From an uncultured Gammaproteobacteria bacterium (GTDB lineage Bacteria > Patescibacteriota > Microgenomatia > Levybacterales > UBA12049): a DNA stretch of 64,000 bases. The notes beneath the pieces were generated by a model. It searched no databases. It worked only from the letters and a program-made list of their open reading frames with translations, and was not told the DNA's origin. Below are positions 47,550 to 63,999 of this stretch, one piece after another; the first letter of the stretch is position 1; the number at the start of each line of letters is the position of its first letter. The translations under genes were made by a program, and so were the position numbers. Where the stretch lies: positions 134,198 through 198,197 of the forward strand of contig CAZIDK010000001.1 of the NCBI GenBank assembly GCA_964537895.1, in the 5' to 3' direction.

Positions 47550-50228
47550 CTATTTTTTAGCTAAATTTATTAAAATATTCCTGTCGCTGTTTAGGCTTCC
47601 CGAATAAACTACTCTTCCGTTATCATCTGCTCCGTCACTTGCAGAAACAACTCTAAACCCGCTCGGATATGTAAGCGAAAAATCATAAGGATACTCCTCT
47701 GTTCCGGGCTGTTTGAAAATACGCAAATCATAATTTAAAACAGGTGAGGAAACTAAAACCCGGTCGTTAAGCGAGTAATCAAAAGTTATTGTTTGCAGAG
47801 CGTTAACGGGAACGTTTGTTAAGAAACCGTAGATTGTTTTTCCATTCTGATCACGTTTTTCAATTTCCAGCTTTTTGGGCGGAGAAAAATTTTTATTTTC
47901 GTAAATCTGGGGATTAGTAATCGCATCAACTGTACTTTGAGCTTGTCCGTTTATTTTTACACCTGTTAGCTGTGCTCCTTGCGGCAATATAAACCTCAAA
48001 TAATTTTTATAAATTCCTCCGGGCCAAATACCATTTACGTTTGTATTTTTATAAGCAACGGTAATGCTTGCGGAAACACTACCGTTATCATCAATATTAA
48101 CAACTTGGGAAACGCTTCTTTTGATAAAATAATTCGCTTTATTAATGCCTAGATTTGCTTCGCTAATACCAAAAAAATCATTAATAAGGTTTTTCTCTTG
48201 TTTTCTATCATCCCACAGGGATGAAGACCAGCCGTTAACGGTGAAAAGGTTTTGGATACTTGAATTATCAAATGCAAAAAGAACGTGTTTTTGCGAAATA
48301 GAGTCCCCAACTGCCTGAGCCAGAGAAAGATAAGAAATATTCTTATTGGTTGCTATGTTATTTTCCATTGCCTGCAACAAAAGTCGTAAAAAATCTTTCT
48401 TTTGCGTAGACCCCGGGAAAAAGTTTTTTTCCGCGTGAGACTGTGTAAGCGCAAAAAGGTTGCCGGAGTTTACGTATTCATTGTACTCCGGAACATAAAC
48501 CTGGCCCATTGCGGAAAGAATATTTTTAACAAAAGAAACGTCAACCCCAATAACTCCGTTAACCGTCTGTTTTTTTGTTAAGCTAAGGAAACGCGCTGCC
48601 GCGGCCGCATCATTAATATAGTCAACGTCAAAATTACTGTCTCTCATATATAGGTTAACGGACGCAAGATGGCGCCTTATGGCAAATGGCGGCTCCACAT
48701 GCCCCCTTAACTGTCCGTCCGCATCATAAACGTCATATATCTTAAAAGCCGAAACCTTACCGTTTTTAACGGTAAGAATTCCGTATGAACCTATAAATCC
48801 CCCTCCGGGCCTTAACTCCATATTGTTTTGAAATAAAACTAAGTAAGTTTTCTCATTATTAAAACCAAGTAAATCCGGCCAAACATCTACGGTATTGGAA
48901 ATAAAATTAATTAAAGGGTCAATTTTTTGCGTAATGTCGGAAAAATTCTGTCCCTGCGCTTTTTCTTTTTCAAAAATCACAATGGCGTTTTTCAAATAAT
49001 TAGACGCATCAATAAAATTGCTCACAGATTTAACATCGCTGGAAAAAGCCAGGGTTAAGGATTTTGACGCATTCAAAAGATAAGTTCCGGCCGTTGAAAC
49101 ATTCTTTCCGGTTTCTATATCGCCGGCCAATTTGTTAAGGAGATCTTGTTTCCCAAAAACCTGGCTTTCGGCAGATAATATGACCCACGCATTTTGAGCG
49201 AGAGAAAAAGAATTTTTAGCAAAATACACGGATTTTTCGGCGGCTATAAAGTCTCCTTTATCAAGCGACGCTTTTGCGTTTTTAAGCGATTCAAGTCCCA
49301 AGAACGAAAACCCCAAGGTTGTGATGAGCGGTAAGGACAAAAAAAACACGATGCAAAAAATTAACCAGAAAAATGGCAGAGCTATGCTGTTTCGCTCTTT
49401 ATATGGATTACTAGTTATAACGATGGATTTTAAAGGCTGTTTTTCTTTAATGCCTACGTTTTTTATTTTATCTTCTAATGCATAGTTCTCGCCTAAAAGA
49501 TAAACGCCTTCCGTTGAAAAAACATAATTTTTTTGCTGGGGGTTTTTTTCTTTAACAAAATCGATATGAAGCGCCGGATTTGCTTTTTGCAGCATATGGG
49601 CAAGAGAGATTAACGTTACTCCGTGTTTTGGAAATAAATAGAAAAGGTTTTTGTTTTCTCCATCTCCAAAAACGGCTTCGAAAATCCCCGTAACGACATC
49701 TTCTAGAAATACGGGGTAAGTTACGCTTGTACCGTCTCCTGGTACATCGATTTTGTTGTAATTTTGCGCTTGATAAATAAATTTATTAACAGCAAATTTT
49801 GTATCGTAAATAATATCCTTACAAAAAATATCGCCGAAAACAGCTATTTTTGCTTTTTGGTAAACATTTGGAATTTCTGCTACAAACGGCTCGTTTATTC
49901 GCAAAATATGGGTAGCAAATAAGAATACCGCTCTATCGTATTGAGCTTTTTTTATAAAACTTGGTAAAGAATCTTTCGTGGCACTTGTTTGATCATCAAC
50001 AACAAAAATGTGTGAATATGTATTGTCCGGAACCGTTGGATTTTTTTTAAAAAACGGGATGTGAACAACATTTTCCGGCGAGGATGGTTTTTTTTGACTG
50101 ACAAAAATAATCAAGGACTCATCTTTAAGCTGTTCTAAAAGCGCGTCTCCTATTATCCCTATCCTGTCAACAATAAGTATGGGGTTTCCATCCTTTTTTT
50201 CGGATGTTACAAAGGCAGATCTTTTCAC
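47550..50228 (-). CDS. DUF4012-domain membrane protein with N-terminal Rossmann-like domain
   Basis: 892 aa. The N-terminus ILIVDRIGIIGDALLEQL is a GxxGxxG Rossmann-like motif. A central TM region (LPFFWLIFCIVFFLSLPLITTLGFSFLG) follows. The C-terminal segment contains ELRPGGGFIGSYG, characteristic of DUF4012. Confidence 0.55.
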   Translation of the reverse strand: MKRSAFVTSEKKDGNPILIVDRIGIIGDALLEQLKDESLIIFVSQKKPSSPENVVHIPFFKKNPTVPDNTYSHIFVVDDQTSATKDSLPSFIKKAQYDRAVFLFATHILRINEPFVAEIPNVYQKAKIAVFGDIFCKDIIYDTKFAVNKFIYQAQNYNKIDVPGDGTSVTYPVFLEDVVTGIFEAVFGDGENKNLFYLFPKHGVTLISLAHMLQKANPALHIDFVKEKNPQQKNYVFSTEGVYLLGENYALEDKIKNVGIKEKQPLKSIVITSNPYKERNSIALPFFWLIFCIVFFLSLPLITTLGFSFLGLESLKNAKASLDKGDFIAAEKSVYFAKNSFSLAQNAWVILSAESQVFGKQDLLNKLAGDIETGKNVSTAGTYLLNASKSLTLAFSSDVKSVSNFIDASNYLKNAIVIFEKEKAQGQNFSDITQKIDPLINFISNTVDVWPDLLGFNNEKTYLVLFQNNMELRPGGGFIGSYGILTVKNGKVSAFKIYDVYDADGQLRGHVEPPFAIRRHLASVNLYMRDSNFDVDYINDAAAAARFLSLTKKQTVNGVIGVDVSFVKNILSAMGQVYVPEYNEYVNSGNLFALTQSHAEKNFFPGSTQKKDFLRLLLQAMENNIATNKNISYLSLAQAVGDSISQKHVLFAFDNSSIQNLFTVNGWSSSLWDDRKQEKNLINDFFGISEANLGINKANYFIKRSVSQVVNIDDNGSVSASITVAYKNTNVNGIWPGGIYKNYLRFILPQGAQLTGVKINGQAQSTVDAITNPQIYENKNFSPPKKLEIEKRDQNGKTIYGFLTNVPVNALQTITFDYSLNDRVLVSSPVLNYDLRIFKQPGTEEYPYDFSLTYPSGFRVVSASDGADDNGRVVYSGSLNSDRNILINLAKK

Positions 50229-50247: not shown

Positions 50248-50670
50248 CTAGAGCAGGTTGTCCAGCGCTAAATTAACCAGTTCGTCTGCCCTTTTGTTTT
50301 TTTCCCTTGCGATATGATTCCACTGAAGAGGCAGTCCTAATTGCGCTTGTTTTTCCCTAACCGTAAAGACTAATTCTCTTATGCTTTCCGCTTTAACTTT
50401 AAAAATTCCTTTTATTTGGGAATACACAAGCTGGGAGTCTACAAAAAAAGATATCTTTGCGTTTTTTTCTAAATTCTGCTTATTTTCCAAAAGCCAGGAA
50501 AGAGCTGCCAGAACAGCTTTATATTCGGCGGTATTATTCGTTGCCTCCCCAATTCTTTTGCCAATTGCCGCCAATTCGTTGCCTTTGTCATCAACTATGT
50601 AAACCCCGATTGCCGCAGGCCCCGGATTACCCCTTGCTCCCCCGTCCGTAAAGATAGAAATGTTATTCAT
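50248..50670 (-). CDS. rnhA: ribonuclease HI
   Basis: IFTDGGARGNPGPAAIG (DEDD Asp), TNNTAEYKA (Glu), D in VDSQL, and the H...D C-terminal motif (HIAREKNKRADEL) are present. Confidence 0.9.
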   Translation of the reverse strand: MNNISIFTDGGARGNPGPAAIGVYIVDDKGNELAAIGKRIGEATNNTAEYKAVLAALSWLLENKQNLEKNAKISFFVDSQLVYSQIKGIFKVKAESIRELVFTVREKQAQLGLPLQWNHIAREKNKRADELVNLALDNLL

Positions 50671-52204: not shown

Positions 52205-52565
52205 TTCTTCTTTCCCAGGATTTTAAATCTGAAAGAAAAACTTCTTTGTTTTCAGATAAAACTTTTTCCTTTGTTTCAGCGGCAAGATTTTTTAACCACT
52301 CTTCTCTTTTTTTCTTATATTCTCCGACCTCAATTGAAACCCTTTTGAACTCGCCAAGCTTTCTGGCCAAACACAAAGACAAAATAAGCTGCAATGACTC
52401 AAGAGTATCACCATGATAGCCGATAACAATTCCGCTGTCTTCCGTGTTAAGATTTATTTCAATCGCCTCTTCTTTCTCCTTAACTTCAAAATCTCCCTGT
52501 ATTTCAAGCAGTTTTAAAAGCTCTTCCGTTGTGTCTTGCACGATTTTACTTTGTTTTTTGTCCAT
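52110..52565 (-). CDS. jag: Jag/KhpB-family RNA-binding protein (KH + R3H)
   Basis: VIGYHGDTLESLQLI is the KH-like GxxG region. The C-terminal R3H is LSDLKSWERRIVHLLLQ. It lies downstream of yidC as in the canonical operon. Confidence 0.8.
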   Translation of the reverse strand: MDKKQSKIVQDTTEELLKLLEIQGDFEVKEKEEAIEINLNTEDSGIVIGYHGDTLESLQLILSLCLARKLGEFKRVSIEVGEYKKKREEWLKNLAAETKEKVLSENKEVFLSDLKSWERRIVHLLLQNDQEVVSESIGEGKDRVLVVKPKN

Positions 52566-53373
52566 ATATTTTATTTTTCCACTCTTCCAGTCCGCCTAAC
52601 CCCGAAACTCTGTATTGCTGCATGATACCAAAAATCGTAAAAGTGTTCCAGTATAAAGATAGGCCAACGGGAAATGTGTATGAGAAAAAACCAATCATAA
52701 TGGGGAAGATATACATCGCCTGTGATTGAAAAACAGAAGCAAAATCATCATTTTTTTTCTTCTCGTCTTTTTTTACCAATCCTTCTTGAGCTTTGGGCTT
52801 ACTAAACATCATTTTTGACTGAATAAACTGAAACAGTGCTGTAAGTAAGGGAACTATTAAGATGATTGGCCCAACGCTTGTGATAATCTGGGAAGGGTTA
52901 CTCCCCAAGGAAACGCCAAAAAAATTCGGATCCCAAGCCTTGGTAAGTTTTAAAGCGTCAAAATAAACAATTTTATTAATTACGTTAGGCCCCAATTGAG
53001 CTATTTGCTGCAAAGCCGTATATAGCCCCCAAATGATTGGAAGCTGAATAATAACAGGCAGGCAGCCGGCAGCCGGATTAACGCCGTGCTCTTTGTATAA
53101 TTTCATTGTTTCCTGCTGGAGGGTTTTTGAATCTCCTTTGTGTCTATTCTTAAGATTTGTAATGTGCGGGTTTAAGTCCTGCATTTTCTTTGAAGCTTTA
53201 AGCTGAGATGCGGTTAGAGGGTACAAAACAAAACGGATGATTATTGTTAATATTATAATTGAAAAACCCAAAGCAAAAGGGAAGTTAACAAAAATTAAAC
53301 CTTTGTAAACGGCAACTAAAACGTTAATTATCGGCCAGACAAGAATAGTATTAAAAATTGAAGGATCTGTCAT
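52546..53373 (-). CDS. yidC: membrane protein insertase YidC/Oxa1 (short Gram-positive-type)
   Basis: RFVLYPLTASQLKASKKMQDLNP, the GCLPVIIQLPIIWGLY conserved TM2-3 region, and the C-terminal basic tail are present. Confidence 0.9.
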   Translation of the reverse strand: MTDPSIFNTILVWPIINVLVAVYKGLIFVNFPFALGFSIIILTIIIRFVLYPLTASQLKASKKMQDLNPHITNLKNRHKGDSKTLQQETMKLYKEHGVNPAAGCLPVIIQLPIIWGLYTALQQIAQLGPNVINKIVYFDALKLTKAWDPNFFGVSLGSNPSQIITSVGPIILIVPLLTALFQFIQSKMMFSKPKAQEGLVKKDEKKKNDDFASVFQSQAMYIFPIMIGFFSYTFPVGLSLYWNTFTIFGIMQQYRVSGLGGLEEWKNKIYGQKTK

Positions 53374-53376
53374 AGT

Positions 53377-53634
53377 TTATGCAATTTTATAGAACGGCTG
53401 ACATTTTAAAAGACGTGCCAATGAAAGCCGGGTACCTGTTAAAACACCTTTTTCTTTAATTGAAATTTTTGCGTATTCAGAGCAAGTTGGCGAAAATCTG
53501 CAGCAATTACTAACGCCAACAATACTTTTAATAATATAAGAAAAAACGTTTTTATAAAAGTCTATAAAAAATAAAATAGTTTTTTTCATTTTAATAATTT
53601 CCGTTTTCCCAATTCTCCCAAAGTTAATTCGCAA
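53377..53634 (-). CDS. yidD: membrane protein insertion efficiency factor YidD
   Basis: CRFSPTCSEYA...GTRLSLARLLKCQPF is the YidD signature. The likely start is the internal Met (MKKTILFF). Confidence 0.85.
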   Translation of the reverse strand: MRINFGRIGKTEIIKMKKTILFFIDFYKNVFSYIIKSIVGVSNCCRFSPTCSEYAKISIKEKGVLTGTRLSLARLLKCQPFYKIA

Positions 53635-53915
53635 ATCTCTTTTGTTGTTTTGCCCAGTATATTTTTTTTTAATATAAACAGCATATCATAGCCGGGTTTT
53701 ATTTTGTCAAAATTATCTTCGATACAAACCCTTATTTGTCTTTTAATTCTATTTCTTGCCGTTGCTCTTTTGTCAATTTTTTTTGAAACTACGAAACCAA
53801 ACCTGTTAAAAGATTTTTCATTTTTTGCAAGTCTTAAAACAAAAAATGGGGAAGTATAAAGATCTTCCTTATTAAACTTCGTTTCTTTTAGCAAACGGTA
53901 TTTTTTCTTAAGCAT
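53586..53915 (-). CDS. rnpA: ribonuclease P protein component
   Basis: The basic RNR-like motif ATARNRIKRQIR, and FGFVVSKK, are present. It lies downstream of rpmH. Confidence 0.88.
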   Translation of the reverse strand: MLKKKYRLLKETKFNKEDLYTSPFFVLRLAKNEKSFNRFGFVVSKKIDKRATARNRIKRQIRVCIEDNFDKIKPGYDMLFILKKNILGKTTKEICELTLGELGKRKLLK

Positions 53916-53931
53916 TAATATTAATAACCGC

Positions 53932-54066
53932 CTAAACAGTAAGGCTTTTCCTTTTTTTTGCCCTTCTGTTTTTTAAAACTTTTTGTCCGCCATGGGTTTT
54001 CGATCTTTCAAAAAATCCGTGTTTTCGTTTCCTTTTTATTTTTTTAAGCTTTATTGATTTTTCCAT
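53932..54066 (-). CDS. rpmH: 50S ribosomal protein L34 (not in the supplied ORF track, below 60 aa)
   Basis: Hand translation gives MEKSIKLKKIKRKRKHGFFERSKTHGGQKVLKNRRAKKRKSLTV, the L34 consensus (KRTxQP..K.KR.HGFR.RM.T..GR.VL..RR.KGR..L). Confidence 0.85.
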   Translation of the reverse strand: MEKSIKLKKIKRKRKHGFFERSKTHGGQKVLKNRRAKKRKSLTV

Positions 54067-54194
54067 TTATTAAGTATAGCAAATTGCGATTGTTTTGAAA
54101 AGCATTAAGCGTGCAAATTAAAAGAGACCCACTTATATACACTTCTGCATATTGACAAAAAGTTATCCACATTATTAAACTGCTCTTTACCACT
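54067..54194. promoter_or_regulatory. candidate replication origin / dnaA promoter region with DnaA box
   Basis: It is the AT-rich rpmH-dnaA divergent spacer. A perfect DnaA box TTATCCACA lies at 54163..54171, with box-like cACTTATAtACAC at 54130. A second spacer between dnaA and dnaN (55548..55673) has TTATACACA (55581..55589). Confidence 0.6.
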
Positions 54195-55547
54195 ATGGAA
54201 GAAAATAAAAAACTTTGGAGTAAAGTTTTGGGAGAAATTGAGATTGAGGTTTCAAAAGCAAATTTTCTAACGCTTTTTAAAAGAACCTCGCTTTTGTCTT
54301 TGGAAGGGAACTCTTTAACAATTGCCGCGCCTTCGGTTATGATTATTGATCTTTTACAAAGAAGGTTTTATGACGTTATTAAAAAATCTGTTGATAAACA
54401 TGTTGGAGTAAGTTCAAAAATAATTTTTGTCCCAAAAGTTTTAGCACCGGAAGAGCAAGCGGAAAAAAACGGCCCTCTTTTTGACGAAAGCGAAAAATCC
54501 CCGACAATTATTGGACACTTACCGCGGGTAAGGCCGGACTACACTTTTGAAAATCTAGCTGTTGCCTCAAGCAACCAATTAGCTTTTGTCAGCGCATCAA
54601 CCGTTGCCAAAAAACCAGGCATTGCATATAATCCTCTTTTTATTTATGGACCAACAGGAGTAGGAAAAACGCATCTAATGCAGGCTATTGCAAATGAAGT
54701 TTATCAAAAAAACCCAAACAAAAAAATAGTTTACACGACAAGCGAGGAATTCACAAATGAAGTGGTTGACGCAATAAGAACCAACAGCACGGCTCTTATG
54801 AAAAAAAGGTTTAGGAATATTGATCTTTTAATAATCGACGACATTCAGTTTATCGCGGGAAAAGAAAAGGTTCAGGAAGAACTTTTTCATACTTTCAATA
54901 TTTTGGTTGATAATCTGGCGCAAATCGTTCTTTCTTCCGACAGGCCCCCGTCGGAAATTAAAAAAGTAGAAAAAAGACTTTTATCGAGATTTTCCGGCGG
55001 GTTAACCGTTGACATAGACACGCCTGATTTTGAATTAAGAACGGCAATCTTATTAATTAAGGCAAAAAAATACGGGTTTGACCTGCCAATAGAAGTTGCC
55101 AAAACAATTGCCGAAAAATCTCAAGACGCCAGAAGTCTTGAGGGGGTCTTATTAAGAATGGCAACAGAGGCCGAAACAAGGGGGATTAATATAACCGGCG
55201 ATTTGGTGCAGTCGGTTTTAAAAAGCACTCGCCAAGAAGATAGAGGGGTTTTCCACCCGGACGATATTATAAACAACATTTGCGCTTATTATAAAATCAA
55301 ACCAACACAGATAAAAAGCGCTAAAAGAGATGCTTCTTTGGTTAGGGCTAGACAGGTGGCAATGTATATTCTTAAAAAAGACCTTGAGTTAACCTATGTT
55401 GAGATTGGTAATATTTTAGGCGGTAGAGATCACACAACTATTATGCATGGTGTGGGAAAAGTGGAAAAAATGGTTGATACGGGTGGGTTTTCCCAGGAAC
55501 TTTTGGGGATAAAAAATTATGACGGGGGAAAACTTGCGGGTTATTAA
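54195..55547 (+). CDS. dnaA: chromosomal replication initiator DnaA
   Basis: The AAA+ module has GPTGVGKTHL, DDIQF and a sensor region. The C-terminal DNA-binding domain is ...VARARQVAMYIL...IGNILGGRDHTTIMHG. Confidence 0.97.
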   Translation: MEENKKLWSKVLGEIEIEVSKANFLTLFKRTSLLSLEGNSLTIAAPSVMIIDLLQRRFYDVIKKSVDKHVGVSSKIIFVPKVLAPEEQAEKNGPLFDESEKSPTIIGHLPRVRPDYTFENLAVASSNQLAFVSASTVAKKPGIAYNPLFIYGPTGVGKTHLMQAIANEVYQKNPNKKIVYTTSEEFTNEVVDAIRTNSTALMKKRFRNIDLLIIDDIQFIAGKEKVQEELFHTFNILVDNLAQIVLSSDRPPSEIKKVEKRLLSRFSGGLTVDIDTPDFELRTAILLIKAKKYGFDLPIEVAKTIAEKSQDARSLEGVLLRMATEAETRGINITGDLVQSVLKSTRQEDRGVFHPDDIINNICAYYKIKPTQIKSAKRDASLVRARQVAMYILKKDLELTYVEIGNILGGRDHTTIMHGVGKVEKMVDTGGFSQELLGIKNYDGGKLAGY

Positions 55548-55673
55548 GTTTTTGAAATTTTACACTTTTTCTAAACACTGTTATACACATTTTATAAACA
55601 TGTTTCTTGGCCGTGCCGCCTTGCTTTTTTCCACTTTTCCAGATACACTACTACTACAACAAGTATCTATATT

Positions 55674-56783
55674 ATGAAAGCCACTTTTCTTACAGAGAAT
55701 CTACAACGGTGTTTATTTTTTTTAAACCATGCTGTTTCCGGAAACAGCCAGTTGGAAATCTTATCGACGTTTTTAATCATCGCCGAAAAGGGACGGCTCA
55801 TAATTAACGCAACCGATTTGGAAATAGGTATATCCTCATCTGTCCCCGCAAACATAGAGGAAGAAGGAATGGCTTGTGTCCCCGCAAAAACATTTTTTGA
55901 ACTCATAAACAACGTCTCAGAAGAAAAAATATCCATAGAAACCAGGGAACAAAACCTTGTTCTAAAAGGGAAAAAAATAAAAATGGCTTTTCGGACAATG
56001 CCTTACGAAGACTTCCCTAAGCTTTATGAGGACAAAGGCGAGGAGGTTGCAGTCTTTAAAAAAGAAACAGTGCTGGATGATTTTAACAAGGTTGTTTTTG
56101 CCGCAAGTCAAGATAGCGGCAGACCAGCGCTTTCAGGCATTTTAATAAAAAAAGAAAAAGACGGCTTTTTAATAGTGGCAACGGATGGATACAGGCTTTC
56201 TTTAAAAAACAACGTTGTGATAAAAACTAAAAAAGGAGAGGGCGTGGACGAGCTTCTTCTTTCGGCAAGGGTTATAAAAGAGCTTGTTTCAATAAAGCAA
56301 AACGAAGACATCTCTCTTTTTGTTTCAGGCAAAAATAACCAAGCGATTTTTGTACAAGGCGAAACAACACTGGTCGGAAGATTAATAGAGGCAGAGTACC
56401 CAAGTTACGAAAAAATTATCCCAACCGATTTTGGAACAAAAGCGGAATTTGATAAGGACGAAATGCAAAAAGCCATAAAACTTTGTTCGGTTTTTGCAAG
56501 GGAAACGGCGAACATAGTTAAATTTTCCGTTAAAAAGGATAAAATAATTGTTTCCGCAAACACGCCTTCGGTTGGGGAGAATACGGTCGAGGTTGACGCG
56601 AAAGTAATAGGCGAGGAAAACGAAATTGCCTTTAATGCCCGCTATTTACTGGATCTTTTTTCAAACATCAATGAGGAAAACATGTCTTTCGAAATGACCG
56701 GCCCGCTAAATCCCGGGGTTTTTAAAATTACAGGCGACAACTCCTTTTTTCACTTAATAATGCCCATTAGAGTGCAGGGCTAA
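55674..56783 (+). CDS. dnaN: DNA polymerase III beta sliding clamp
   Basis: 369 aa with a three-domain clamp fold. MKATFLTENL...LEILSTFLIIAEKGRLIINATDLEIGIS is the typical N-terminus. Confidence 0.93.
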   Translation: MKATFLTENLQRCLFFLNHAVSGNSQLEILSTFLIIAEKGRLIINATDLEIGISSSVPANIEEEGMACVPAKTFFELINNVSEEKISIETREQNLVLKGKKIKMAFRTMPYEDFPKLYEDKGEEVAVFKKETVLDDFNKVVFAASQDSGRPALSGILIKKEKDGFLIVATDGYRLSLKNNVVIKTKKGEGVDELLLSARVIKELVSIKQNEDISLFVSGKNNQAIFVQGETTLVGRLIEAEYPSYEKIIPTDFGTKAEFDKDEMQKAIKLCSVFARETANIVKFSVKKDKIIVSANTPSVGENTVEVDAKVIGEENEIAFNARYLLDLFSNINEENMSFEMTGPLNPGVFKITGDNSFFHLIMPIRVQG

Positions 56784-57524
56784 TTATTTCGGAATAACCC
56801 CCCATGAGAAATCATATCCAGAGGTGCTTACCCCAATTCTTTTTAATTCCGTTAGCACCTCGTTTTTTAGTACAACAACCTGTTCGGAAATAGAGGATGG
56901 AGAGTTTTTTAATGGATATAGATCAACAAAAAACAGTCCTTTTTCTGCATCAAAACCAACAAAATACCTATCGTTTTCCGGAGGAAGGCTATCATACCAC
57001 GGATATTTTTTATAAAAAGCGTCCATCTGGGCATTTGACTCGTTATCCAGTATGCCTTGTGCTTTCAACTGATCTTCCTCTGAAACATTTTCAATTTTTG
57101 CAGTCGTAAAGCCCCATGAATATTTCTTGTTAAAATAATCCAGTCGCAAAATATAGGCTGTGTCCACCTCAAGGCCCCCCTCCAGCTTTGCATTAAGCCT
57201 AGAATTATTATTTGACCAAAAATATGAAGTTTTGACAAACGGATTAATTAAAAGAGACACGTTATTTTTTTCAGTATTATCTACTGGTCTTGAAAAATCA
57301 ACATAAACATCTGTGAATATGCCTGCGTTATTATGGTTGGGCTCCGGAAAAACATTTTTTATTTCCAAACCTTCCTTTTTAAGGATTACAGTCTCTTTTG
57401 GAACAAGATAACCCGTTCTTTTATTTGAAAAAAGAAAAAAAACAATGATGAGCAAAAAAAATAGCGCAAAACTAAGGCCCAATATTAAAACCAACTTTTT
57501 GTTATAAATAAGAAAGTTTTTCAT
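56784..57524 (-). CDS. bitopic membrane protein of the T4SS-like cluster (function unknown; VirB8-like topology)
   Basis: An N-terminal TM (LVLILGLSFALFFLLIIVFFLF) is followed by an extracytoplasmic beta-rich domain of about 210 aa. It starts 1 nt after the CHAP gene stop. Confidence 0.3.
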   Translation of the reverse strand: MKNFLIYNKKLVLILGLSFALFFLLIIVFFLFSNKRTGYLVPKETVILKKEGLEIKNVFPEPNHNNAGIFTDVYVDFSRPVDNTEKNNVSLLINPFVKTSYFWSNNNSRLNAKLEGGLEVDTAYILRLDYFNKKYSWGFTTAKIENVSEEDQLKAQGILDNESNAQMDAFYKKYPWYDSLPPENDRYFVGFDAEKGLFFVDLYPLKNSPSSISEQVVVLKNEVLTELKRIGVSTSGYDFSWGVIPK

Positions 57525-58385
57525 TTATCTTGGTCCCAACCCAAAAGCTACATTTGTTGCAGCAGGCAACCACACGTTTCCTAAAAGCTTCCATCCGCTA
57601 ACATAATGCTTAATGAGTTTCTGATTGACATTGGCATCTATAGTATACAGCACTCCATTTCCGCTTGAATTAACGCTTATTGCATCTATTAAATCTGCGT
57701 GTCTATATCTATAGCAATTGCAACTTCCGCTAAGACCATACCAAAAAACAGCATCTCCTGGTTTTACCATCCTTACATTATTTGTTTTTAATAAGGTAAG
57801 GCCCCTGATGGATCCCCATTGGCTTACCATGCTGGGGGTCCATTCACTAAGATTGTTTTTTATGCCCGCCAGGTTATAGGCGTCCTTCACAAGCCTTGTG
57901 CAGAGATAGGCTCCTCCATATCCTTGACAATCACCCCCCCTAATAGCAGCACTATATCCTGCAGTATTTCTTATAATGCTTTGTTGTCTATTGTAAATTG
58001 TGTTGCTGCAACCTAAAGCCTTAGTAAGGACGCTGTTTATTTTTCTCCCCCACACGAGAATATCTGTTCCGTCGAGTCCGCCTGGTTGCGTAGTTGGTCC
58101 GGGAGTAGAAGATTCTGTCGGAGAAGGGGAGTTGCTTAGGTCGCCGCCGACAACAGTGCTCGGGGCGGCTCCGGAGAACATAATAATAACAACAACAAGT
58201 ATGACAACGCCAATCCCTACCCCTACGGCTGGTCCGGCCAATGCGCCCAATCCTTCTCCTGCAAGCCATGCCGCCCTCGCTTTTTTGTAAGCACCATAGG
58301 CTCTTTGCAGATTTCTTCCTTTGCCGGCAAGGCTGTTAATTCTGCCCACAGCAGATGAATCTTTTTTTTCGTTTTCTTCGGCCAT
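57525..58385 (-). CDS. membrane-anchored CHAP-domain peptidoglycan hydrolase (T4SS-associated lytic enzyme candidate)
   Basis: Cytoplasmic N-terminus, a TM (GIGVVILVVVIIMF), and a Ser/Pro/Thr linker. The CHAP catalytic Cys is in GGDCQGYGGAYLCTRLV, and the His in PGDAVFWYG...YRHADLI. Confidence 0.6.
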   Translation of the reverse strand: MAEENEKKDSSAVGRINSLAGKGRNLQRAYGAYKKARAAWLAGEGLGALAGPAVGVGIGVVILVVVIIMFSGAAPSTVVGGDLSNSPSPTESSTPGPTTQPGGLDGTDILVWGRKINSVLTKALGCSNTIYNRQQSIIRNTAGYSAAIRGGDCQGYGGAYLCTRLVKDAYNLAGIKNNLSEWTPSMVSQWGSIRGLTLLKTNNVRMVKPGDAVFWYGLSGSCNCYRYRHADLIDAISVNSSGNGVLYTIDANVNQKLIKHYVSGWKLLGNVWLPAATNVAFGLGPR

Positions 58386-58439: not shown

Positions 58440-60383
58440 CTAGCTACTAGCGTCTAGTTTAGGAATGGGGTTTTCTGTTGGGAGGATGATAGTTGTCGCT
58501 GGCGGAGCAACCGGCTCATTGACCGGCGTCATAGGTGGTTCAACAGGGGCCTGTGTCATCAACCGCGCTCTTTCGGCTTCATCCTCCTGCATTTTAAGAA
58601 TTTCTTGCGGGTTAGATGTAATCATTGTGTGTTCAAAGGGTGCAGCTATAACTTTCATTGCAACATGGCTTTGTCCTGCAAAAAACAACCCTTCGCCGAT
58701 ATCCGCCGATAGCAAAAGTTCTTTCTCTCCCTGCGAGAGATAAAAGGTTTGCGAAACCAAGTCTACTTCGGACGGGCTTTGTTTTAAAAGCATTTGTATC
58801 GAAGAGTTTGATAAAATGGCTTTGCCATAGTCGGTGGACAGGAAATCCTGCACGTCTTGGGTTGCCGTTGTTAGCGCAAGATAATATTTGCGTGACCTTT
58901 TGGCAATGCTATAAACAAAAGAAGCAGAATCGGGATATTTCATAATATACCAGGCCTCATCAAGAATAAGAAGGCGCTTTTTAAGTGTTTTTCTAATCCT
59001 TGTCCAAACAAAATCTAAAACAATGTGCATGGCAACCGGCCTTAGCTCTTCCTCAAGCGCCTTGATATTAAAAACCGTTAGCAAATTCTTAAGATCAAAA
59101 TTGGATTGCTGGTTAAATATTCCGCTTAAGCTTCCTTTAATGAATTTCTCAAGTCTTAACGCCAGCTCTCTGGCGGCCGGGTCTTCCATGCCGAGCAATA
59201 CCTTGTATAAATCTTCCATTAAAGGAGGCTGTTTCTTTTGCGTTGTGGGATCGGCAGTTATGCCTTTTTGCCGGTATGTTTCGACCAGTGCCCTGTCTAA
59301 AATTGCATCGTGAGCGGCATCCAAATCGCCCATAATAATTCTTAAAAGTCCGTGTAAAGAAAGAATTTTAAGACCAAGCTCATTTTCGCCTTCTTCGTAA
59401 AGCCCGGACATGTCAAAAGGGTTTATCCTGACCGGATCAGACGCGGTAAAGGAAACATGCTCGCCTCCCAGAGTTTTTGCCAGGGTTTCATATTCTCCTT
59501 CCGGGTCGATAATGATAACTTCCGTTCCAAACATAAACTGCCTTATTGCTTCAAGTTTAATTAAATAAGATTTTCCCGCTCCGGATTTGCCCAAAACCAC
59601 TTCGTTGGCGTTTTCTAAGGAGAATCTGTCGAAAATAATTAAAGAACCGTTTTGCTCGTTAATTCCGTACATTACGCCTTTATCTTGCGCCAGCATTGCC
59701 GAAGTAAACGGAAAAGTTGAAGCAAGGGATGTTGTGTCCATGTTCCTAGTTATAAAAAGCCTGTCTTGTCCCAAGGGAATGCTGGATTTAAATCCGTCTT
59801 CCATTTGCAGGGTTGCGGTTTTTGAGAGCATAAGTATTGAGCCAAGCGTTGTGCTTAGTCTTTTCGAGGCTTCGTCTAAGTCTTTAACGTTTTCGGCAGA
59901 AAGCGTTATGTAGAGACTGTATTGAAAAAACCTTTCAACGCCTTTTGCCAGCTCTTCCTGAACGGATAAAGCGTCATCTAAAGATGCTTTTACCTTAGGG
60001 TCAATCAGCTGTCCTTCCTCAACTTGGGATGAAATCGTTGCTTCCATTTCGGCAATTTTTCTGCGCAAATCCGACAAAACATCGGGAGATGAGGTTGGAT
60101 AGATAAACATAGAAATATTCATAGAGTGGTCAAAGTCAATTATGGGCTGAAGCCAGTTTGCCGATACGTAGCGCGGATAGCCAACGACGAAAACTGTTTT
60201 ATAAAACTTTTCCCCTACTCTTATAAAATGAAAATCAACTTCAACAGAAGACGGCGCAATAATATCCGTTAAGGAAACCATTCCTTTTTCAAGTTTGGCA
60301 ATACTTGGCGAAACAGTCTGCTGCTGCTTTGCTGGCAGCTGTGTTTGGCTGACTTGGGTTTTGTTTTTTTTGAAAAGATTCAT
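58440..60383 (-). CDS. VirB4/TrbE/CagE-family type IV secretion ATPase (C-terminal ATPase part)
   Basis: Walker A GKSGAGKS, Walker B RLLILDEAWY, and a FYLSQGE/ATQ sensor region are present. 647 aa is short for VirB4. The N-domain appears to be encoded by the overlapping upstream ORF. Confidence 0.75.
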   Translation of the reverse strand: MNLFKKNKTQVSQTQLPAKQQQTVSPSIAKLEKGMVSLTDIIAPSSVEVDFHFIRVGEKFYKTVFVVGYPRYVSANWLQPIIDFDHSMNISMFIYPTSSPDVLSDLRRKIAEMEATISSQVEEGQLIDPKVKASLDDALSVQEELAKGVERFFQYSLYITLSAENVKDLDEASKRLSTTLGSILMLSKTATLQMEDGFKSSIPLGQDRLFITRNMDTTSLASTFPFTSAMLAQDKGVMYGINEQNGSLIIFDRFSLENANEVVLGKSGAGKSYLIKLEAIRQFMFGTEVIIIDPEGEYETLAKTLGGEHVSFTASDPVRINPFDMSGLYEEGENELGLKILSLHGLLRIIMGDLDAAHDAILDRALVETYRQKGITADPTTQKKQPPLMEDLYKVLLGMEDPAARELALRLEKFIKGSLSGIFNQQSNFDLKNLLTVFNIKALEEELRPVAMHIVLDFVWTRIRKTLKKRLLILDEAWYIMKYPDSASFVYSIAKRSRKYYLALTTATQDVQDFLSTDYGKAILSNSSIQMLLKQSPSEVDLVSQTFYLSQGEKELLLSADIGEGLFFAGQSHVAMKVIAAPFEHTMITSNPQEILKMQEDEAERARLMTQAPVEPPMTPVNEPVAPPATTIILPTENPIPKLDASS

Positions 60384-61051
60384 TTTGCCCCCTCGTTTTT
60401 AACTATCGGTGATTTTATGTTGTCTGTTGCCTGGCCTGTTTCAATTAAGGTATCGTTGTATATTTCATAAAATAATTTAATTAACTCTTCTTTTTCCAGA
60501 GTTCTGGCTCGCAAATTAAGTCTTCCGAGCTGGGAGTGCAGGGACTCTGCTTTTGAATGAAGAGCGGATTTAGCGTTTTGGACAAAAGCGAAATCATCCA
60601 CCGAGCTTTTCTTCTTAACACTGCCCGCCGCAGCGCCGATGCCCTTTTCAAGGTAGGAAAAAGGAACAGCAATATAGAATTTTTTATCCAAAACGGTATT
60701 TACCTTAATTAATTCCTGAATAAAATCTTTGTAAAGCTTTATCTGCTCCGCAAGCATCTGATTTTGTGTTTTTCCTGCTTCAGTATCAAGAAGCTTAAGA
60801 TAGGAGGTTATGTCCAGCTTTTTACTTCTGATAAGAATTTGAATCGGGAAGGAGAGGGAGTTAAGAAGGGCGGCGTAAGAGAAAATTTTTGAATCCTGTT
60901 CTTCTGCGGACAAAAGCGCAAAGTTTGTAGCGGTTACTTCAATAACCAAGCAGGCGTTACCATTGGTTAAAACAACAACGTCATCGATAACGTCCTGTAT
61001 TTCTGTGAATTTCTGCGTTGTTGCGTTGATTTTTCGGGCAGAACTTTTCAT
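60380..61051 (-). CDS. VirB4 N-terminal-domain-like protein (apparent split or frameshifted virB4 5' part)
   Basis: 223 aa, overlapping the ATPase ORF by ATGA. IQDVIDDVVVLTNGNACLVIEVTATNFALLSAEEQDSKIFSYAALLNSLSFPIQILIRSKKLD resembles the N-terminal region of Gram-positive-type VirB4 proteins (I.D.i.....g.....l.i.piNF.L.s.eEq...i..f...L.sl..piQi.....k.d). Confidence 0.45.
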   Translation of the reverse strand: MKSSARKINATTQKFTEIQDVIDDVVVLTNGNACLVIEVTATNFALLSAEEQDSKIFSYAALLNSLSFPIQILIRSKKLDITSYLKLLDTEAGKTQNQMLAEQIKLYKDFIQELIKVNTVLDKKFYIAVPFSYLEKGIGAAAGSVKKKSSVDDFAFVQNAKSALHSKAESLHSQLGRLNLRARTLEKEELIKLFYEIYNDTLIETGQATDNIKSPIVKNEGAK

Positions 61052-61168: not shown

Positions 61169-61540
61169 TTAAATATTATTCCCTTTTCCTTTTAAAGTCG
61201 GGATACTTGAACCGAATATTTTGGAAATTTCATCAAGTTCTGCCAAAATTGAATTTGCTTCATCCTTTTCACCATTATCTGTATCCCGCAATATTGAAAC
61301 CCACACCTTGCTTTCATTTGCCGACTTTAAGCTATGGTGAAAATAGTTTGTGTAATCCTTCTTTGAACTTGCAGACTGCCCTTCTATATAGTTTCCCAAA
61401 ATACTCGTCCCGCTTCTTATTAATTGGTCTCCAATAATCTTTGTTGTTTGAGATTTTTTGCAATTCTCAACAAATTTAATAATCCTTAAGATAAGACCGT
61501 ATAAACGTTTTTTAAATTCTCTTTCCCTATCGTTTTTCAT
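61169..61540 (-). CDS. four-helix-bundle protein (PF05635 / 23S rRNA intervening-sequence protein family)
   Basis: GDQLIRSGTSILGNYIEGQSASSKKDYTNYFHHSLKSANESKVW matches the family core (QL.RSA.SI..NIAEG......D...F...A.GS..E...). Confidence 0.7.
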   Translation of the reverse strand: MKNDREREFKKRLYGLILRIIKFVENCKKSQTTKIIGDQLIRSGTSILGNYIEGQSASSKKDYTNYFHHSLKSANESKVWVSILRDTDNGEKDEANSILAELDEISKIFGSSIPTLKGKGNNI

Positions 61541-61584: not shown

Positions 61585-62805
61585 CTAGCTAAACAGACTT
61601 CTCCTTAACTCTTCTCTTGTGTCAACGGAGAGCACTTCTATCGGCAGTATTATTTGTCCGGTTACGCTAAATTGAATAACATCAAACTTGTTTTCTCCCT
61701 TAGTGTCCTCAAATTCTATAGTGTAAGTACCGTTATTTAGCGGCGTTGCGGAGGCGAATTGTCCTAAAGGATTTGTTTTGAATGCTCGAACAGGGTTACT
61801 GTCGGCATCTTTTATTTCAACAAGAATATTTCCCAAGGGATTGCCTCGCGGGTCTTTTACAATGCCTGTAACCAGGTTTGGAAATTCGGGCGCAATTGGA
61901 AGGCCTATGCTTTTTCCTAAGCCTTGGGGAATGCTTCTTATATTTTGAGTTTCTTTTTTGGGCGCTTTGGCAATAGAGGCGGTATAAACGTTTTTGTTTT
62001 CGTTTGTAAGCTTTTTCTGAAGTTCTGCGATTTGTCCTTCAAGCACTTGTTTTTGCTTGGCAGTATCTGTTAGGAGATTTTCAAGTTCAAGTACCTTTAA
62101 GTGCGCCTGTTTATATTCTTCAGATCCCGACTGCGCTGATTCCTGCGTCTTTGCTTGCACCAACTGCTGCTGTAAAATTTGCGCCTCTTTTCGTAAAATT
62201 TCTTCCTCTTCGGAAGGCATTTCTGCTTCTTTTGCGACCGGAGCCGGTTGATTTGGCGGAGCTTGGTTAGCAAAAGCATGAGGCGTAGCGGGCTGGGGTA
62301 CTTGTAATTGCGGGGCAGGAGTGTTTGCCTGGAGACTAGCTAACGATTCGAAGAAAACCATTTCTTTTTGGTCAAGCTGGTTTTTTGATCTTTTGGGCAG
62401 TGAATTTAAATAGTCTTTTAATGCCTGTCCGGAAAGAGACGCAGTTTGGGCCGCCTGTTGGGCCCGCTGTTGTTTTTGAGATTGAGCAAGATGCGGTATA
62501 GGAAGCCAAAGGTGCCCCCCTGTCTTTTGATAAATAAACTGCGTCGGATAGAAGACGGCTTTAAAAAAATTAGAAATCATTAAATCCATAGGTCTCCCCT
62601 CAATGGGCAAAAAAGCAAAGCCGGCGCCTAAAAGAATTGATATTCCGGCAAGAGGAATCTTGACGATTGGAATTAAAGGAAGAACGAAAATAATCCAGCC
62701 TATTACCACCCCTGCCGCAAGATAGGCAAATTGTTTAATCGTCATGTCGCCAATCAGCTTAAACTGAAAACCGGTAATATCTTGAGGTATAGGGTGATTT
62801 TCCAT
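61585..62805 (-). CDS. PrgI/VirB3-like N-terminal membrane domain fused to coiled-coil and C-terminal beta-sandwich domain
   Basis: The N-terminus IPQDITGFQFKLIGDMTIKQFAYLAAGVVIGWIIFV matches the PrgI-family motif (f.G.T.RQ......a). Two TM helices are followed by a Gln/Glu-rich coiled coil (QILQQQLVQAKTQESAQ...ELQKKL). The C-terminus GIVKDPRGNPLGNILVEIKD...YTIEFED is a carboxypeptidase-regulatory-like / Ig-like beta sandwich. Confidence 0.5.
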   Translation of the reverse strand: MENHPIPQDITGFQFKLIGDMTIKQFAYLAAGVVIGWIIFVLPLIPIVKIPLAGISILLGAGFAFLPIEGRPMDLMISNFFKAVFYPTQFIYQKTGGHLWLPIPHLAQSQKQQRAQQAAQTASLSGQALKDYLNSLPKRSKNQLDQKEMVFFESLASLQANTPAPQLQVPQPATPHAFANQAPPNQPAPVAKEAEMPSEEEEILRKEAQILQQQLVQAKTQESAQSGSEEYKQAHLKVLELENLLTDTAKQKQVLEGQIAELQKKLTNENKNVYTASIAKAPKKETQNIRSIPQGLGKSIGLPIAPEFPNLVTGIVKDPRGNPLGNILVEIKDADSNPVRAFKTNPLGQFASATPLNNGTYTIEFEDTKGENKFDVIQFSVTGQIILPIEVLSVDTREELRRSLFS

Positions 62806-62838: not shown

Positions 62839-63225
62839 CTAGTTGCTAGTGTCCTCCTTTGTTAATTTTTTCATTTTTCCTATCATAACATTTAACATTT
62901 TAGAAACTTCCAACAAGAGATTCTCGCTTGGTTTAAATAATGTCTCTTTTGCCATAATTAATTCTTTTGAAATAATAAGCTGCGTTTCAAGCTCTAGGGC
63001 AGAGCCATAGGCAAAGGAATAAAACTGAACAGATGATCTAAAAGATCTTCGGCCGAATGCCTCTGCAATGTTTGATGGAATTGATACCGCCGCTCTTCTC
63101 ATTTGAGAAGTAATGCCAAAAACTTCTGATTTAGGAAAATTTTCGGTTAAAAGAAAGATTTCTTTTACTAATTTCATTCCTTTCTGCCAAACGATGAGTT
63201 CTTTATAAGATTTAATAATTGCCAT
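62839..63225 (-). CDS. four-helix-bundle protein (PF05635 family), second copy
   Basis: YKELIVWQKGMKLVKEIFLLTENFPKSEVFGITSQMRRAAVSIPSNIAEAFGRRSFRSSVQFYSFAYGSALELETQLIISKEL is an almost canonical match to the family. Confidence 0.8.
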   Translation of the reverse strand: MAIIKSYKELIVWQKGMKLVKEIFLLTENFPKSEVFGITSQMRRAAVSIPSNIAEAFGRRSFRSSVQFYSFAYGSALELETQLIISKELIMAKETLFKPSENLLLEVSKMLNVMIGKMKKLTKEDTSN

Positions 63226-63388: not shown

Positions 63389-63700
63389 TTATTTGCAGGT
63401 ATCAAATCCAAACGTAGTGATGCAGTCGGCCCCAGTTATTGTTCCTATTAACTTAATTATTGCAAAAGCCAAAAGAATAACGATTAGTCCCGCTACTGCA
63501 TAGGTTAAAGTTTTCCTTGCTCCCTCGACTTGTTTTGGGTCGCCGCCAGAGGTTAAGAATTTTATTCCTGCCAGTATGATGAAAAAAACAGCAACAATCC
63601 CGGCTAAACCGGCAGCCCAGTAAACAATATTACTAAAAACAGCAGGTAAGCAGCTAAGAGTTGCAACTCCATCTTGAACACAGCTTCCCCAGTCCTTCAT
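63389..63700 (-). CDS. VirB2/TrbC-like pilin candidate (small two-TM protein with paired cysteines)
   Basis: 103 aa. A TM hairpin IVAVFFIILAGIKFLTSGGDPKQVEGARKTLTYAVAGLIVILLAFAIIKLI is present. Cys pairs sit at both ends (C..C near the N-terminus, C...C at the C-terminus). It is paralogous to 63748..63999. Confidence 0.45.
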   Translation of the reverse strand: MKDWGSCVQDGVATLSCLPAVFSNIVYWAAGLAGIVAVFFIILAGIKFLTSGGDPKQVEGARKTLTYAVAGLIVILLAFAIIKLIGTITGADCITTFGFDTCK

Positions 63701-63747: not shown

Positions 63748-63999
63748 TTATTCGCAGGTGGGGTTAGTTAAGCTAGGAATACAGAAATTACCGGATAAGG
63801 GGCTGCCGACTCCCAGAAAAGTAAAGACAACATTTATAATAAAGAAAGCTGCAACTACAATTACTAAGCCGACTATCGCAGCGACAATGTGTTTTCTGGC
63901 GGCATCAACGTTTGCTTTGTCCCCGCCGGAAATTACCCATTTAATTCCTCCGTAGATAAGGAAAATCAAGGAAATTAAAATACCGACAACTAAAAGCAA
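63748..63999 (-). CDS. VirB2/TrbC-like pilin candidate, paralogue; 5' end may lie beyond the window edge
   Basis: 83 aa as drawn. It has the same GIKWVISGGDKANVDAARKHIVAAIVGLVIVVAAFFII hairpin and a C-terminal CIPSLTNPTCE. Its first codon is at the last in-frame position of the window. Confidence 0.4.
   Translation of the reverse strand: MLLVVGILISLIFLIYGGIKWVISGGDKANVDAARKHIVAAIVGLVIVVAAFFIINVVFTFLGVGSPLSGNFCIPSLTNPTCE

Follow-up and report, generated by a model that had tools for sequence, protein, structure and literature searches.

A VirB4 probably encoded naturally by two coupled genes in a chromosomal type IV secretion cluster of a Levybacteria-type Patescibacterium

The pairing of a small TrsD protein with a VirB4 ATPase is already known from staphylococcal plasmids and, since 2025, from thousands of Patescibacteria genomes, according to Quinonero-Coronel et al. 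(2025, Microb Genom, PMC12102498). As described there, no type IV secretion system (T4SS) component is more common in Patescibacteria than TrsD, a remote homologue of the VirB4 N-terminus; it mostly adjoins virB4 in clusters located near dnaA/dnaN. The same paper reports TrsD homologues away from virB4 in Gracilibacteria, relaxases that are usually absent, a coupling-protein gene that usually lies elsewhere, and an essential TrsD in Southlakia epibionticum ML1 (Wang et al. 2023, as cited in PMC12102498). TrsD is not named in the main text of Guglielmini et al. 2014. In the staphylococcal conjugative plasmids pSK41 and pGO1 (MPF-FATA, pGO1 subclass), TrsD (227 aa) and the VirB4-like TrsE (672 aa) are products of separate genes. 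Full-length VirB4 is represented by TrwK of R388 (PDB 7O41-7O43, 8RTB, and 8RTD) and by the profiles NF045971 and NF045975; in R388, the VirB4 N-terminal domain, which covers TrwK residues 15-400, mediates dimerisation and is wrapped by VirB3 (PMC9259494).

We compared these systems to a locus in a 64,000-nucleotide stretch of DNA, hereafter the window, in which the earlier note had described a 223-aa and a 647-aa ORF overlapping by 4 nt at an ATGA; the coordinates, minus strand, and quoted peptide were all verified. The relevant features are, by position in the window:

54195-55547: dnaA
55674-56783: dnaN (its counterpart at the related locus L082 is called DNA_pol3_beta)
56784..58385 (-): two co-oriented downstream genes, 286 aa and 246 aa, each with a predicted N-terminal membrane segment
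58440..60383 (-): ORF-A, 647 aa, VirB4-family ATPase
58950..58973 (-): Walker B region LLILDEAW, ORF-A residues 471-478
59568..59591 (-): Walker A motif GKSGAGKS, ORF-A residues 265-272
60380..60383 (-): ATGA junction, formed by the ORF-N TGA (60382-60380) and the ORF-A ATG (60383-60381)
60388..60394 (-): Shine-Dalgarno (SD)-like GAGGGGG, within the ORF-N 3' end and 4 nt 5' of the ORF-A ATG
60380..61051 (-): ORF-N, 223 aa, TraC-like (PF26593) / TrsD-like
61585..62805 (-): PrgI/VirB3-like membrane protein, 406 aa (PF12666 PrgI, 33 bits against a cut-off of 27, residues 5-91), with a C-terminal CarboxypepD_reg-like domain
63389..63700 (-): VirB2-like T4SS pilin, 103 aa (PF18895 T4SS_pilin, E 2.7e-13)
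63748..63999 (-): second T4SS pilin-like ORF, running to the window end (PF18895, E 1.6e-6)

The locus fits the chromosomal T4SS cluster of Patescibacteria, with PrgI/VirB3-like and VirB2-like pilin genes near virB4, and dnaA and dnaN close by. In common with the Patescibacteria TrsD-VirB4 pair, it has a stand-alone relative of the VirB4 N-terminus directly 5' of virB4, the same PrgI/VirB3-like and pilin genes, no relaxase nearby, dnaA, dnaN, and rnpA beside the cluster (yidC is also near), and a Microgenomatia-type genomic background. We found no essential difference, and the window represents an instance of that system. Neither a VirB6-like protein, a coupling protein, nor a relaxase was seen among the ORFs scanned, from 42 kb to 64 kb of the window. 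The PrgI/VirB3-like protein presumably serves as the membrane anchor for VirB4. Gene order at L082 matches that of the window, including the PrgI-like gene, and the L082 counterpart of the second pilin-like ORF is 111 aa long. The 286-aa and 246-aa downstream proteins matched no Pfam family above threshold.

ORF-A belongs to the VirB4 family, as it exceeds a curated cut-off and has intact Walker motifs and a RecA-like C-terminal domain. It scored 392.6 bits against NF045971 (CD1110-family VirB4, cut-off 325) and 90 bits against PF19044 (cut-off 25.8), with additional matches to PF12846 and PF01935, and aligned to the VirB4 C-terminal domain structure PDB 4AG5 with an E-value of 3e-46. All full-length profile matches started well inside the model, covering positions 162-734 of 752 for NF045971 and 277-893 of 894 for NF045975 (Mycoplasma ICE VirB4), and beginning at position 239 of 792 for TIGR00929, so that in none of the three does ORF-A carry the complete N-terminal domain found in a single polypeptide of canonical length (~800 aa). 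ORF-A lacks the first ~160-200 residues of canonical VirB4 and retains the second half of the N-terminal domain along with the C-terminal ATPase domain. The breakpoint lies within the N-terminal domain, because residues 329-737 of TrwK align to ORF-A residues 158-558 and the TrwK domain extends to residue 400.

In full-length VirB4, the first ~200 residues are homologous to and colinear with ORF-N; they are exactly the part that ORF-A lacks. ORF-N matched positions 97-279 of the 894-position NF045975 profile (E 2.7e-10), immediately before the segment matched by ORF-A. Fold comparison of ORF-N returned matches to TrwK/VirB4 only, while a search of the ORF-N profile against PDB sequences yielded nothing meaningful (best E 9, coiled-coil noise). 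Within the PDB, VirB4 was reached by fold comparison only. Both models used in the analysis, here and for the fused orthologue below, reached only moderate confidence (pLDDT 68 and 67). From HMM colinearity and the fused orthologues described below, ORF-N appears to be the first half of the VirB4 N-terminal domain. The earlier identification of the 223-aa ORF as the VirB4 part absent from the ATPase ORF is thereby upheld by colinear HMMs, fused orthologues, folds, and an end-to-end TrwK match; its labeling of the two ORFs as "N-domain" and "ATPase" holds in that ORF-N derives from the N-domain, but ORF-N provides only the first half and ORF-A holds the second. Alignment of the ORF-N profile to ORF-A residues 1-235 with hhalign revealed no similarity (E 0.62), and ORF-N is therefore no sequence paralogue of the N-terminal part retained in ORF-A. 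The precomputed annotation places ORF-N in the TraC-like family PF26593, a domain assigned to a protein identical to ORF-N and to 119 of the 120 homologues listed; our local Pfam-A scan of ORF-N did not return PF26593 and gave only a sub-threshold match to PF11130 (TraC_F_IV). We found no mention of PF26593 in the literature.

ORF-N also fits the TrsD-like component of PMC12102498 in size (~200-230 aa), remote homology to the VirB4 N-terminus, and position next to virB4. Compared to pSK41 TrsD, the ORF-N profile aligned with an E-value of 1.4e-4 and a probability of 53% over 157 columns spanning both proteins (hhalign), for which the null result between ORF-N and ORF-A doubles as a negative control. 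Against NF041427 (TrsD/TraD family), ORF-N reached 25.6 bits (E 9.2e-6) over residues 8-93 only, compared to a cut-off of 200; it is a remote TrsD relative and not a member of NF041427 by the NCBI criterion. ORF-A and TrsE are 26% identical and align from their very N-termini (residue 16 of ORF-A, residue 6 of TrsE), such that the breakpoint is common to the window and pSK41. The gene order is likewise shared, with a pilin-like protein, a VirB3-like protein, TrsD, and TrsE followed by a membrane protein and a wall hydrolase, the positions of trsF and trsG corresponding to the two downstream genes of the window; BLASTP revealed no similarity between the 286-aa downstream protein and TrsG, a CHAP protein. 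Unlike the window, which is chromosomal and beside the replication origin, pSK41 is a conjugative plasmid with a relaxase and a coupling protein, and 14 nt lie between its trsD and trsE, which do not overlap.

Relative to full-length VirB4, ORF-N and ORF-A cover the architecture colinearly and conserve Walker A and B, but the polypeptide is broken after its first ~200 residues, and each piece carries a short disordered extension, namely a predicted disordered tail in ORF-N (residues 201-223) and a leader of ~35 residues at the ORF-A N-terminus. Unbroken counterparts do exist: we identified 27 fused proteins of 746-891 aa across NCBI, JGI, ENA, and Logan, in which PF26593 lies N-terminal to PF19044, PF12846, and PF01935. 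An AlphaFold model of one fused orthologue (P0270) matched TrwK/VirB4 along its entire length, over ~850 columns (E 3e-24, TMq 0.62, TMt 0.61). Fused forms occurred in at least seven separate groups of a neighbor-joining tree of Levybacteria-type ATPases, a crude tree built on a sample biased towards fused forms. In one fused locus (L064), NCBI annotates only 593 aa of a continuous 779-aa ORF. The accessible sections of PMC12102498 do not state the recurrent Levybacteria-type fused orthologues, the end-to-end TrwK match, or the breakpoint inside the N-terminal domain.

Across related genomes, the split state predominates, is conserved, and is subject to purifying selection. The comparison of fused and split states at orthologous loci, which the earlier note had called for, revealed an ATPase gene directly after the ORF-N homologue in 80 of 80 loci, 78 of which were split and two fused (L064, 779 aa; L070, 761 aa). 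The pairing is not a product of chance. This split was kept across sequences with identities ranging from 95% down to 51%, and 49 columns were invariant in an alignment of 31 ORF-N-family sequences. Together with the gene context, these observations make it quite probable that the pair is a natural two-gene VirB4, i.e., two separate, translationally coupled genes of a chromosomal monoderm-type (MPF-FATA-like) T4SS in a Levybacteria-type Patescibacterium, with ORF-N docking on ORF-A.

ORF-N could instead descend from the VirB4 N-terminus and now function as an independent accessory factor, such as an adaptor, an assembly chaperone, or a T4SS regulator, and no longer as a structural half. This seems rather unlikely given that the region supplied by ORF-N is absent from ORF-A, that linkage is tight and coupled in all 80 loci, that several groups of the same clade contain fused orthologues with directly joined parts, and that the fused model and TrwK match from end to end, even if long low-complexity tails with LPPLPEI- or PFVVEEL-type ends in about half of the representatives and the Gracilibacteria TrsD homologues unlinked to virB4 (PMC12102498) would speak for it.

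The junction itself bears on a second alternative, a programmed -1 ribosomal frameshift near the ATGA yielding a full-length ~870-aa VirB4, perhaps besides two separate products. The frames do differ, with ORF-A in the -1 frame relative to ORF-N and a run of five G immediately 5' of the junction, but upstream of the ORF-A ATG the reading frame stays open for no more than 15 nt, an interval that contains no X XXY YYZ heptamer. Nor is the G-run conserved: it is replaced by SD-like GGAG or AAGGAG in other loci, and 48 of 77 split loci carry an SD-like purine motif ahead of the ATPase start (the GAGGGGG of the window was identified by reading the sequence directly). The 78 split junctions were similarly variable, including 34 ATGA, 8 TAATG, 4 TAAATG (e.g., L024), 22 gaps of 1-6 nt, 6 gaps of 62-170 nt, and 4 others, and spanned all three relative frames, some of them in-frame with a stop codon between the two parts. 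Since the true fused genes carry a shortened and different linker as well, we consider a frameshift very improbable, and the ATGA overlap is of the translational-coupling type.

That the split is a sequencing or assembly indel, or a recent pseudogenising frameshift of a once-fused gene, is hardly credible despite the overlap in different frames and the existence of fused orthologues, because a protein identical to ORF-N is present on five contigs (at L082, the one shown, the calls are 223 + 647 aa, with the other four reported as similar places), each of the best 120 among 2028 ORF-N homologues (61-95% identity) is a stand-alone protein with a length of 211-232 aa, all but two of the 80 loci have the split form, conservation is strong in both parts and Walker A and B are intact, and ORF-A comes with a leader peptide, an ATG, and an SD-like site of its own. 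Among the four options that the earlier note had left side by side, the naturally split gene is thus the sole survivor, while the programmed frameshift, pseudogenising indel, and sequencing error are contradicted by the conserved split, the variable junctions, the separate start signals, and the five contigs.

If VirB4 is naturally encoded by two genes here, the ATGA overlap would couple translation of ORF-N and ORF-A and may keep their products in step. Judging from the fused orthologues, ORF-N would then dock non-covalently on the N-terminal part of ORF-A and rebuild the complete VirB4 N-terminal domain in trans. The rebuilt domain would in turn link the hexameric ATPase to the PrgI/VirB3-like membrane protein, whose gene lies two genes upstream.

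C-terminal ends differ across the broader family. In the family of the window, the conserved end motif is KTPIVR.E. Of 149 family representatives, about half have a long low-complexity tail that closes with a motif of the LPPLPEI or PFVVEEL type, and many distant members have disordered tails of 100-500 aa with conserved C-terminal motifs. Family members of 270-715 aa were considered as truncated fused VirB4 and rejected, as they contain no ATPase sequence. These motif-ended tails, as well as the Gracilibacteria TrsD reported apart from virB4 in PMC12102498, hint at roles beyond structural complementation. We tentatively raise the possibility that in this lineage the VirB4 N-terminal domain has a modular make-up, with its TrsD/TraC-like first half repeatedly detached and re-fused, that the detached half gained the long disordered tails in other CPR lineages, and that the tail motifs could be docking peptides to the ATPase or another T4SS partner; the accessible sections of PMC12102498 contain no such proposal. 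If true, assembly of an essential secretion machine would be regulated through the detached half, the Patescibacteria T4SS being essential for epibiotic growth.

In practical terms, gene pairs of the ORF-N/ORF-A type should not be flagged as pseudogenes or frameshifts, and the opposite annotation error exists as well, as illustrated by the fused ORF under-called by NCBI at L064. For the biology of the family, the fused orthologues and the end-to-end match to TrwK lead to a testable hypothesis, namely that TrsD may be the first half of the VirB4 N-terminal domain, provided in trans.

VirB4 is predicted to be encoded in the window by two overlapping ORFs, and re-reading of the window ORFs bore out the coordinates, lengths and quoted peptide of the earlier note.

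60380-61051, minus strand, ORF-N, 223 aa, TraC-like
58440-60383, minus strand, ORF-A, 647 aa, VirB4 ATPase
60388-60394, minus strand, Shine-Dalgarno-like GAGGGGG, 4 nt upstream of the ORF-A ATG

The ORF-A ATG is overlapped by the TGA of ORF-N (ATGA), the frames of the two ORFs differ, and the ORF-A frame is open over just 15 nt upstream of its ATG. An A8 homopolymer (60364-60371; T8 on the plus strand), which could be a slippage-prone site, lies within ORF-A codons 5-8, ATGAATCTTTTCAAAAAAAACAAAACC, in a poorly conserved leader.

ORF-A scored 392.6 bits against the CD1110-family VirB4 model, above the curated cut-off of 325, with a match beginning at profile position 162 of 752. Its Walker A and Walker B motifs are intact, and its C-terminal half matched the VirB4 C-terminal domain structure 4AG5 (E 3e-46). 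ORF-N and ORF-A covered successive parts of the Mycoplasma-ICE VirB4 model (positions 97-279, E 2.7e-10, and 277-893 of 894, respectively), which makes the pair colinear with a single full-length VirB4; the TrsD/TraD model matched ORF-N weakly (E 9e-6, far under cut-off). Since ORF-A residue 158 aligns with residue 329 of TrwK, the full-length VirB4 of R388, whose N-terminal domain comprises residues 15-400 (PMC9259494), the break falls inside this domain. ORF-N is accordingly not the whole VirB4 N-domain that the earlier note had taken it for: these alignments place the first half of the domain in ORF-N, and the second half, with the ATPase domain, in ORF-A. Sequence comparison makes ORF-N a homologue of the VirB4 N-terminus and the piece missing from ORF-A, not a duplicate; it has no sequence similarity to the first 235 residues of ORF-A. 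With an AlphaFold model of ORF-N (pLDDT 68; low confidence at residues 1-15, 137-151 and 201-223) as Foldseek query against the PDB, only TrwK/VirB4 chains were top matches, the 14 best having probabilities of 0.99-1.0 and E-values of 9e-4 to 1.6e-2, and the next an E-value of 0.2.

Homologues of ORF-N numbered 2028, and the best 120 of these were all stand-alone proteins (211-232 aa, 61-95% identity) from Patescibacteria, chiefly Levybacteria; 49 columns were invariant in an alignment of 31 sequences. Across 80 loci, obtained by scanning one genome per species, the ATPase gene was always directly 3' of the ORF-N homologue, with the two split in 78 loci and fused in 2. Split junctions comprised the ATGA overlap (34 loci), TAATG (8), TAAATG (4), longer overlaps (3), and gaps of 1-6 nt (22) or 62-170 nt (6), with 1 anomalous locus. 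All three relative frames were seen, and 48 of 77 split loci had an SD-like motif before the ATPase start. The identical 223-aa protein occurs on five contigs, with gene calls of 223 and 647 aa at the one place shown (locus L082, a Logan assembly of a public run). This conserved split with variable junctions, together with the identical copies, rules out a sequencing error, a recent pseudogenising indel and a conserved programmed frameshift, and supports the naturally split gene among the origins that the earlier note had offered. The split is real, with two genes carrying separate initiation signals. Some related loci deviate in the ATPase ORF: it is far longer in L068 (1336 aa) and in L039, L062 and L080 (about 790-815 aa), pointing to an extended C-terminus or to fusion with a gene downstream, and in L066 it is apparently interrupted.

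Both parts form a single ORF in the related loci L064 (779 aa) and L070 (761 aa), with a shortened linker and without the ORF-N tail or the ORF-A leader, and the ORF-N/ORF-A pair is equivalent to such fused orthologues. A model of P0270 (779 aa, the same sequence as the L064 protein; pLDDT 67) aligned end to end with TrwK (~850 columns, E 3e-24; TM 0.62 query-normalised, 0.61 target-normalised). The nearest ATPase relatives of the two fused proteins are split forms (74-78% identity), and neither is the nearest neighbour of the other. A fused-protein query recovered 27 fused proteins from NCBI, JGI, ENA and Logan (746-891 aa, ATPase domains plus PF26593, named 'TraC-like'); a crude NJ tree built on the ATPase part spread these over at least 7 separate groups, with split forms in between. 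With fused groups so scattered, the fused/split state appears evolutionarily labile, which argues for two products working as one unit. Overall, fused forms are a small minority (2 of 80 genomes; 1-2 of 150 family representatives). At L064 (contig JACPGP010000016.1, 4995-7331), the ORF is continuous over 779 aa, TraC-like N-domain included; the NCBI call there is a 593-aa ATP-binding protein only (P0274, 100% identity across 76% of the query). This annotation artefact is the reverse of the one that the earlier note was concerned about.

The staphylococcal plasmid pSK41 has the transfer gene order trsB (pilin-like), trsC, trsD (227 aa), trsE (672 aa, VirB4-like), trsF (membrane protein) and trsG (CHAP), and the window follows this order with its pilin genes, PrgI-like gene, ORF-N, ORF-A and the two genes downstream. 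ORF-A is 26% identical to TrsE in an alignment beginning at residues 16 and 6, respectively, which indicates the same breakpoint in TrsD/TrsE; TrsD aligned with the ORF-N profile over 157 columns (E 1.4e-4, probability 53%). The neighbouring genes are as follows.

62839-63225 and 61169-61540, minus strand, two PF05635 '23S rRNA-intervening sequence protein' genes
61585-62805, minus strand, PrgI/VirB3-like protein, unusually long (406 aa), PrgI domain at residues 5-91
57525-58385, minus strand, 286-aa protein directly downstream of virB4
within 52546-57524, minus strand, yidC and rnpA (gene scan)
55674-56783, plus strand, dnaN (same region)
54195-55547, plus strand, dnaA (same region)
50248-50670, minus strand, RNase H / RVT_3-type protein, 140 aa, adjoining the DUF4012 protein
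47550-50228, minus strand, DUF4012 protein, 892 aa
45860-47161, protein with C-terminal Trans_reg_C DNA-binding domain, 433 aa

The PrgI/VirB3-like protein is Q/A/P-rich and coiled-coil-like in its middle part and carries at its C-terminus a CarboxypepD_reg-like Ig domain that, at 31.6 bits, falls slightly short of the 32.3 cut-off. Its gene is flanked by the two PF05635 genes, interleaved with T4SS genes and encoding weakly bAvd-like four-helix bundles; L082 has a third (907-1263) upstream of the pilins, and there a Trans_reg_C-domain protein gene directly precedes the pilin genes. The 286-aa protein has a membrane segment at its N-terminus and, after a P/S/T-rich linker, a C-terminal domain rich in Cys and His; it had no Pfam match and no BLASTP similarity to the TrsG CHAP hydrolase; its position just downstream of virB4 is comparable to that of trsG, the second gene after trsE, and the protein is possibly a divergent wall hydrolase, analogous to VirB1. 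The yidC/rnpA/dnaA/dnaN layout places a putative replication origin at about 54 kb. The T4SS operon and dnaN converge: the last operon gene, on the minus strand, ends at 56784 and directly abuts the dnaN stop at 56783. Transcription of the operon would be head-on to replication if this runs rightward from the putative origin.

Termination-reinitiation at the ATGA would couple translation of ORF-N and ORF-A, and ORF-N would then dock on the N-terminal part of ORF-A, completing the VirB4 N-terminal domain. In R388, VirB4 dimerises through this domain, around which VirB3 wraps (PMC9259494); in the window, the PrgI-like protein would take the place of VirB3 as partner. The main rival, that TrsD-like proteins are now independent accessory factors, is hinted at by the long disordered tails with conserved C-terminal motifs of distant ORF-N family members, and by unlinked copies of TrsD-like genes in Gracilibacteria, described in PMC12102498. 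Among 149 family representatives (P0121-P0269), about half (270-715 aa) consist of the N-domain and a long Q/N/P/S/T-rich low-complexity tail, without an ATPase part. The C-terminal end is LPP[LI][PA]EI in 32 representatives and PF[VI]VEEL.DDYG in 14, and K[TS]P[IV]V[RK].E is conserved near the C-terminus of short proteins of the window type (ORF-N tail, 60380-60450, minus strand). The last 16 residues contain P-h-h-x-[EDQG] in 30% of close homologues vs. 0.3% of shuffled tails, and the C-terminal motif may be a docking peptide.

For Patescibacteria, the study of Quinonero-Coronel et al. 2025 (PMC12102498) reports TrsD as the most abundant T4SS component, with 1,664 of 2,272 homologues adjoining virB4, as essential in S. 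epibionticum ML1, and, in Microgenomatia, T4SS clusters near dnaA, dnaN and rnpA. The window shows the same TrsD-virB4 arrangement and a matching context (yidC, rnpA and dnaA, then dnaN, then the T4SS cluster), and the ORF-N/ORF-A pair is therefore an instance of an arrangement already known. The residual novelty is in the recurrent fusion and fission and in the possible C-terminal docking motifs of the ORF-N family.
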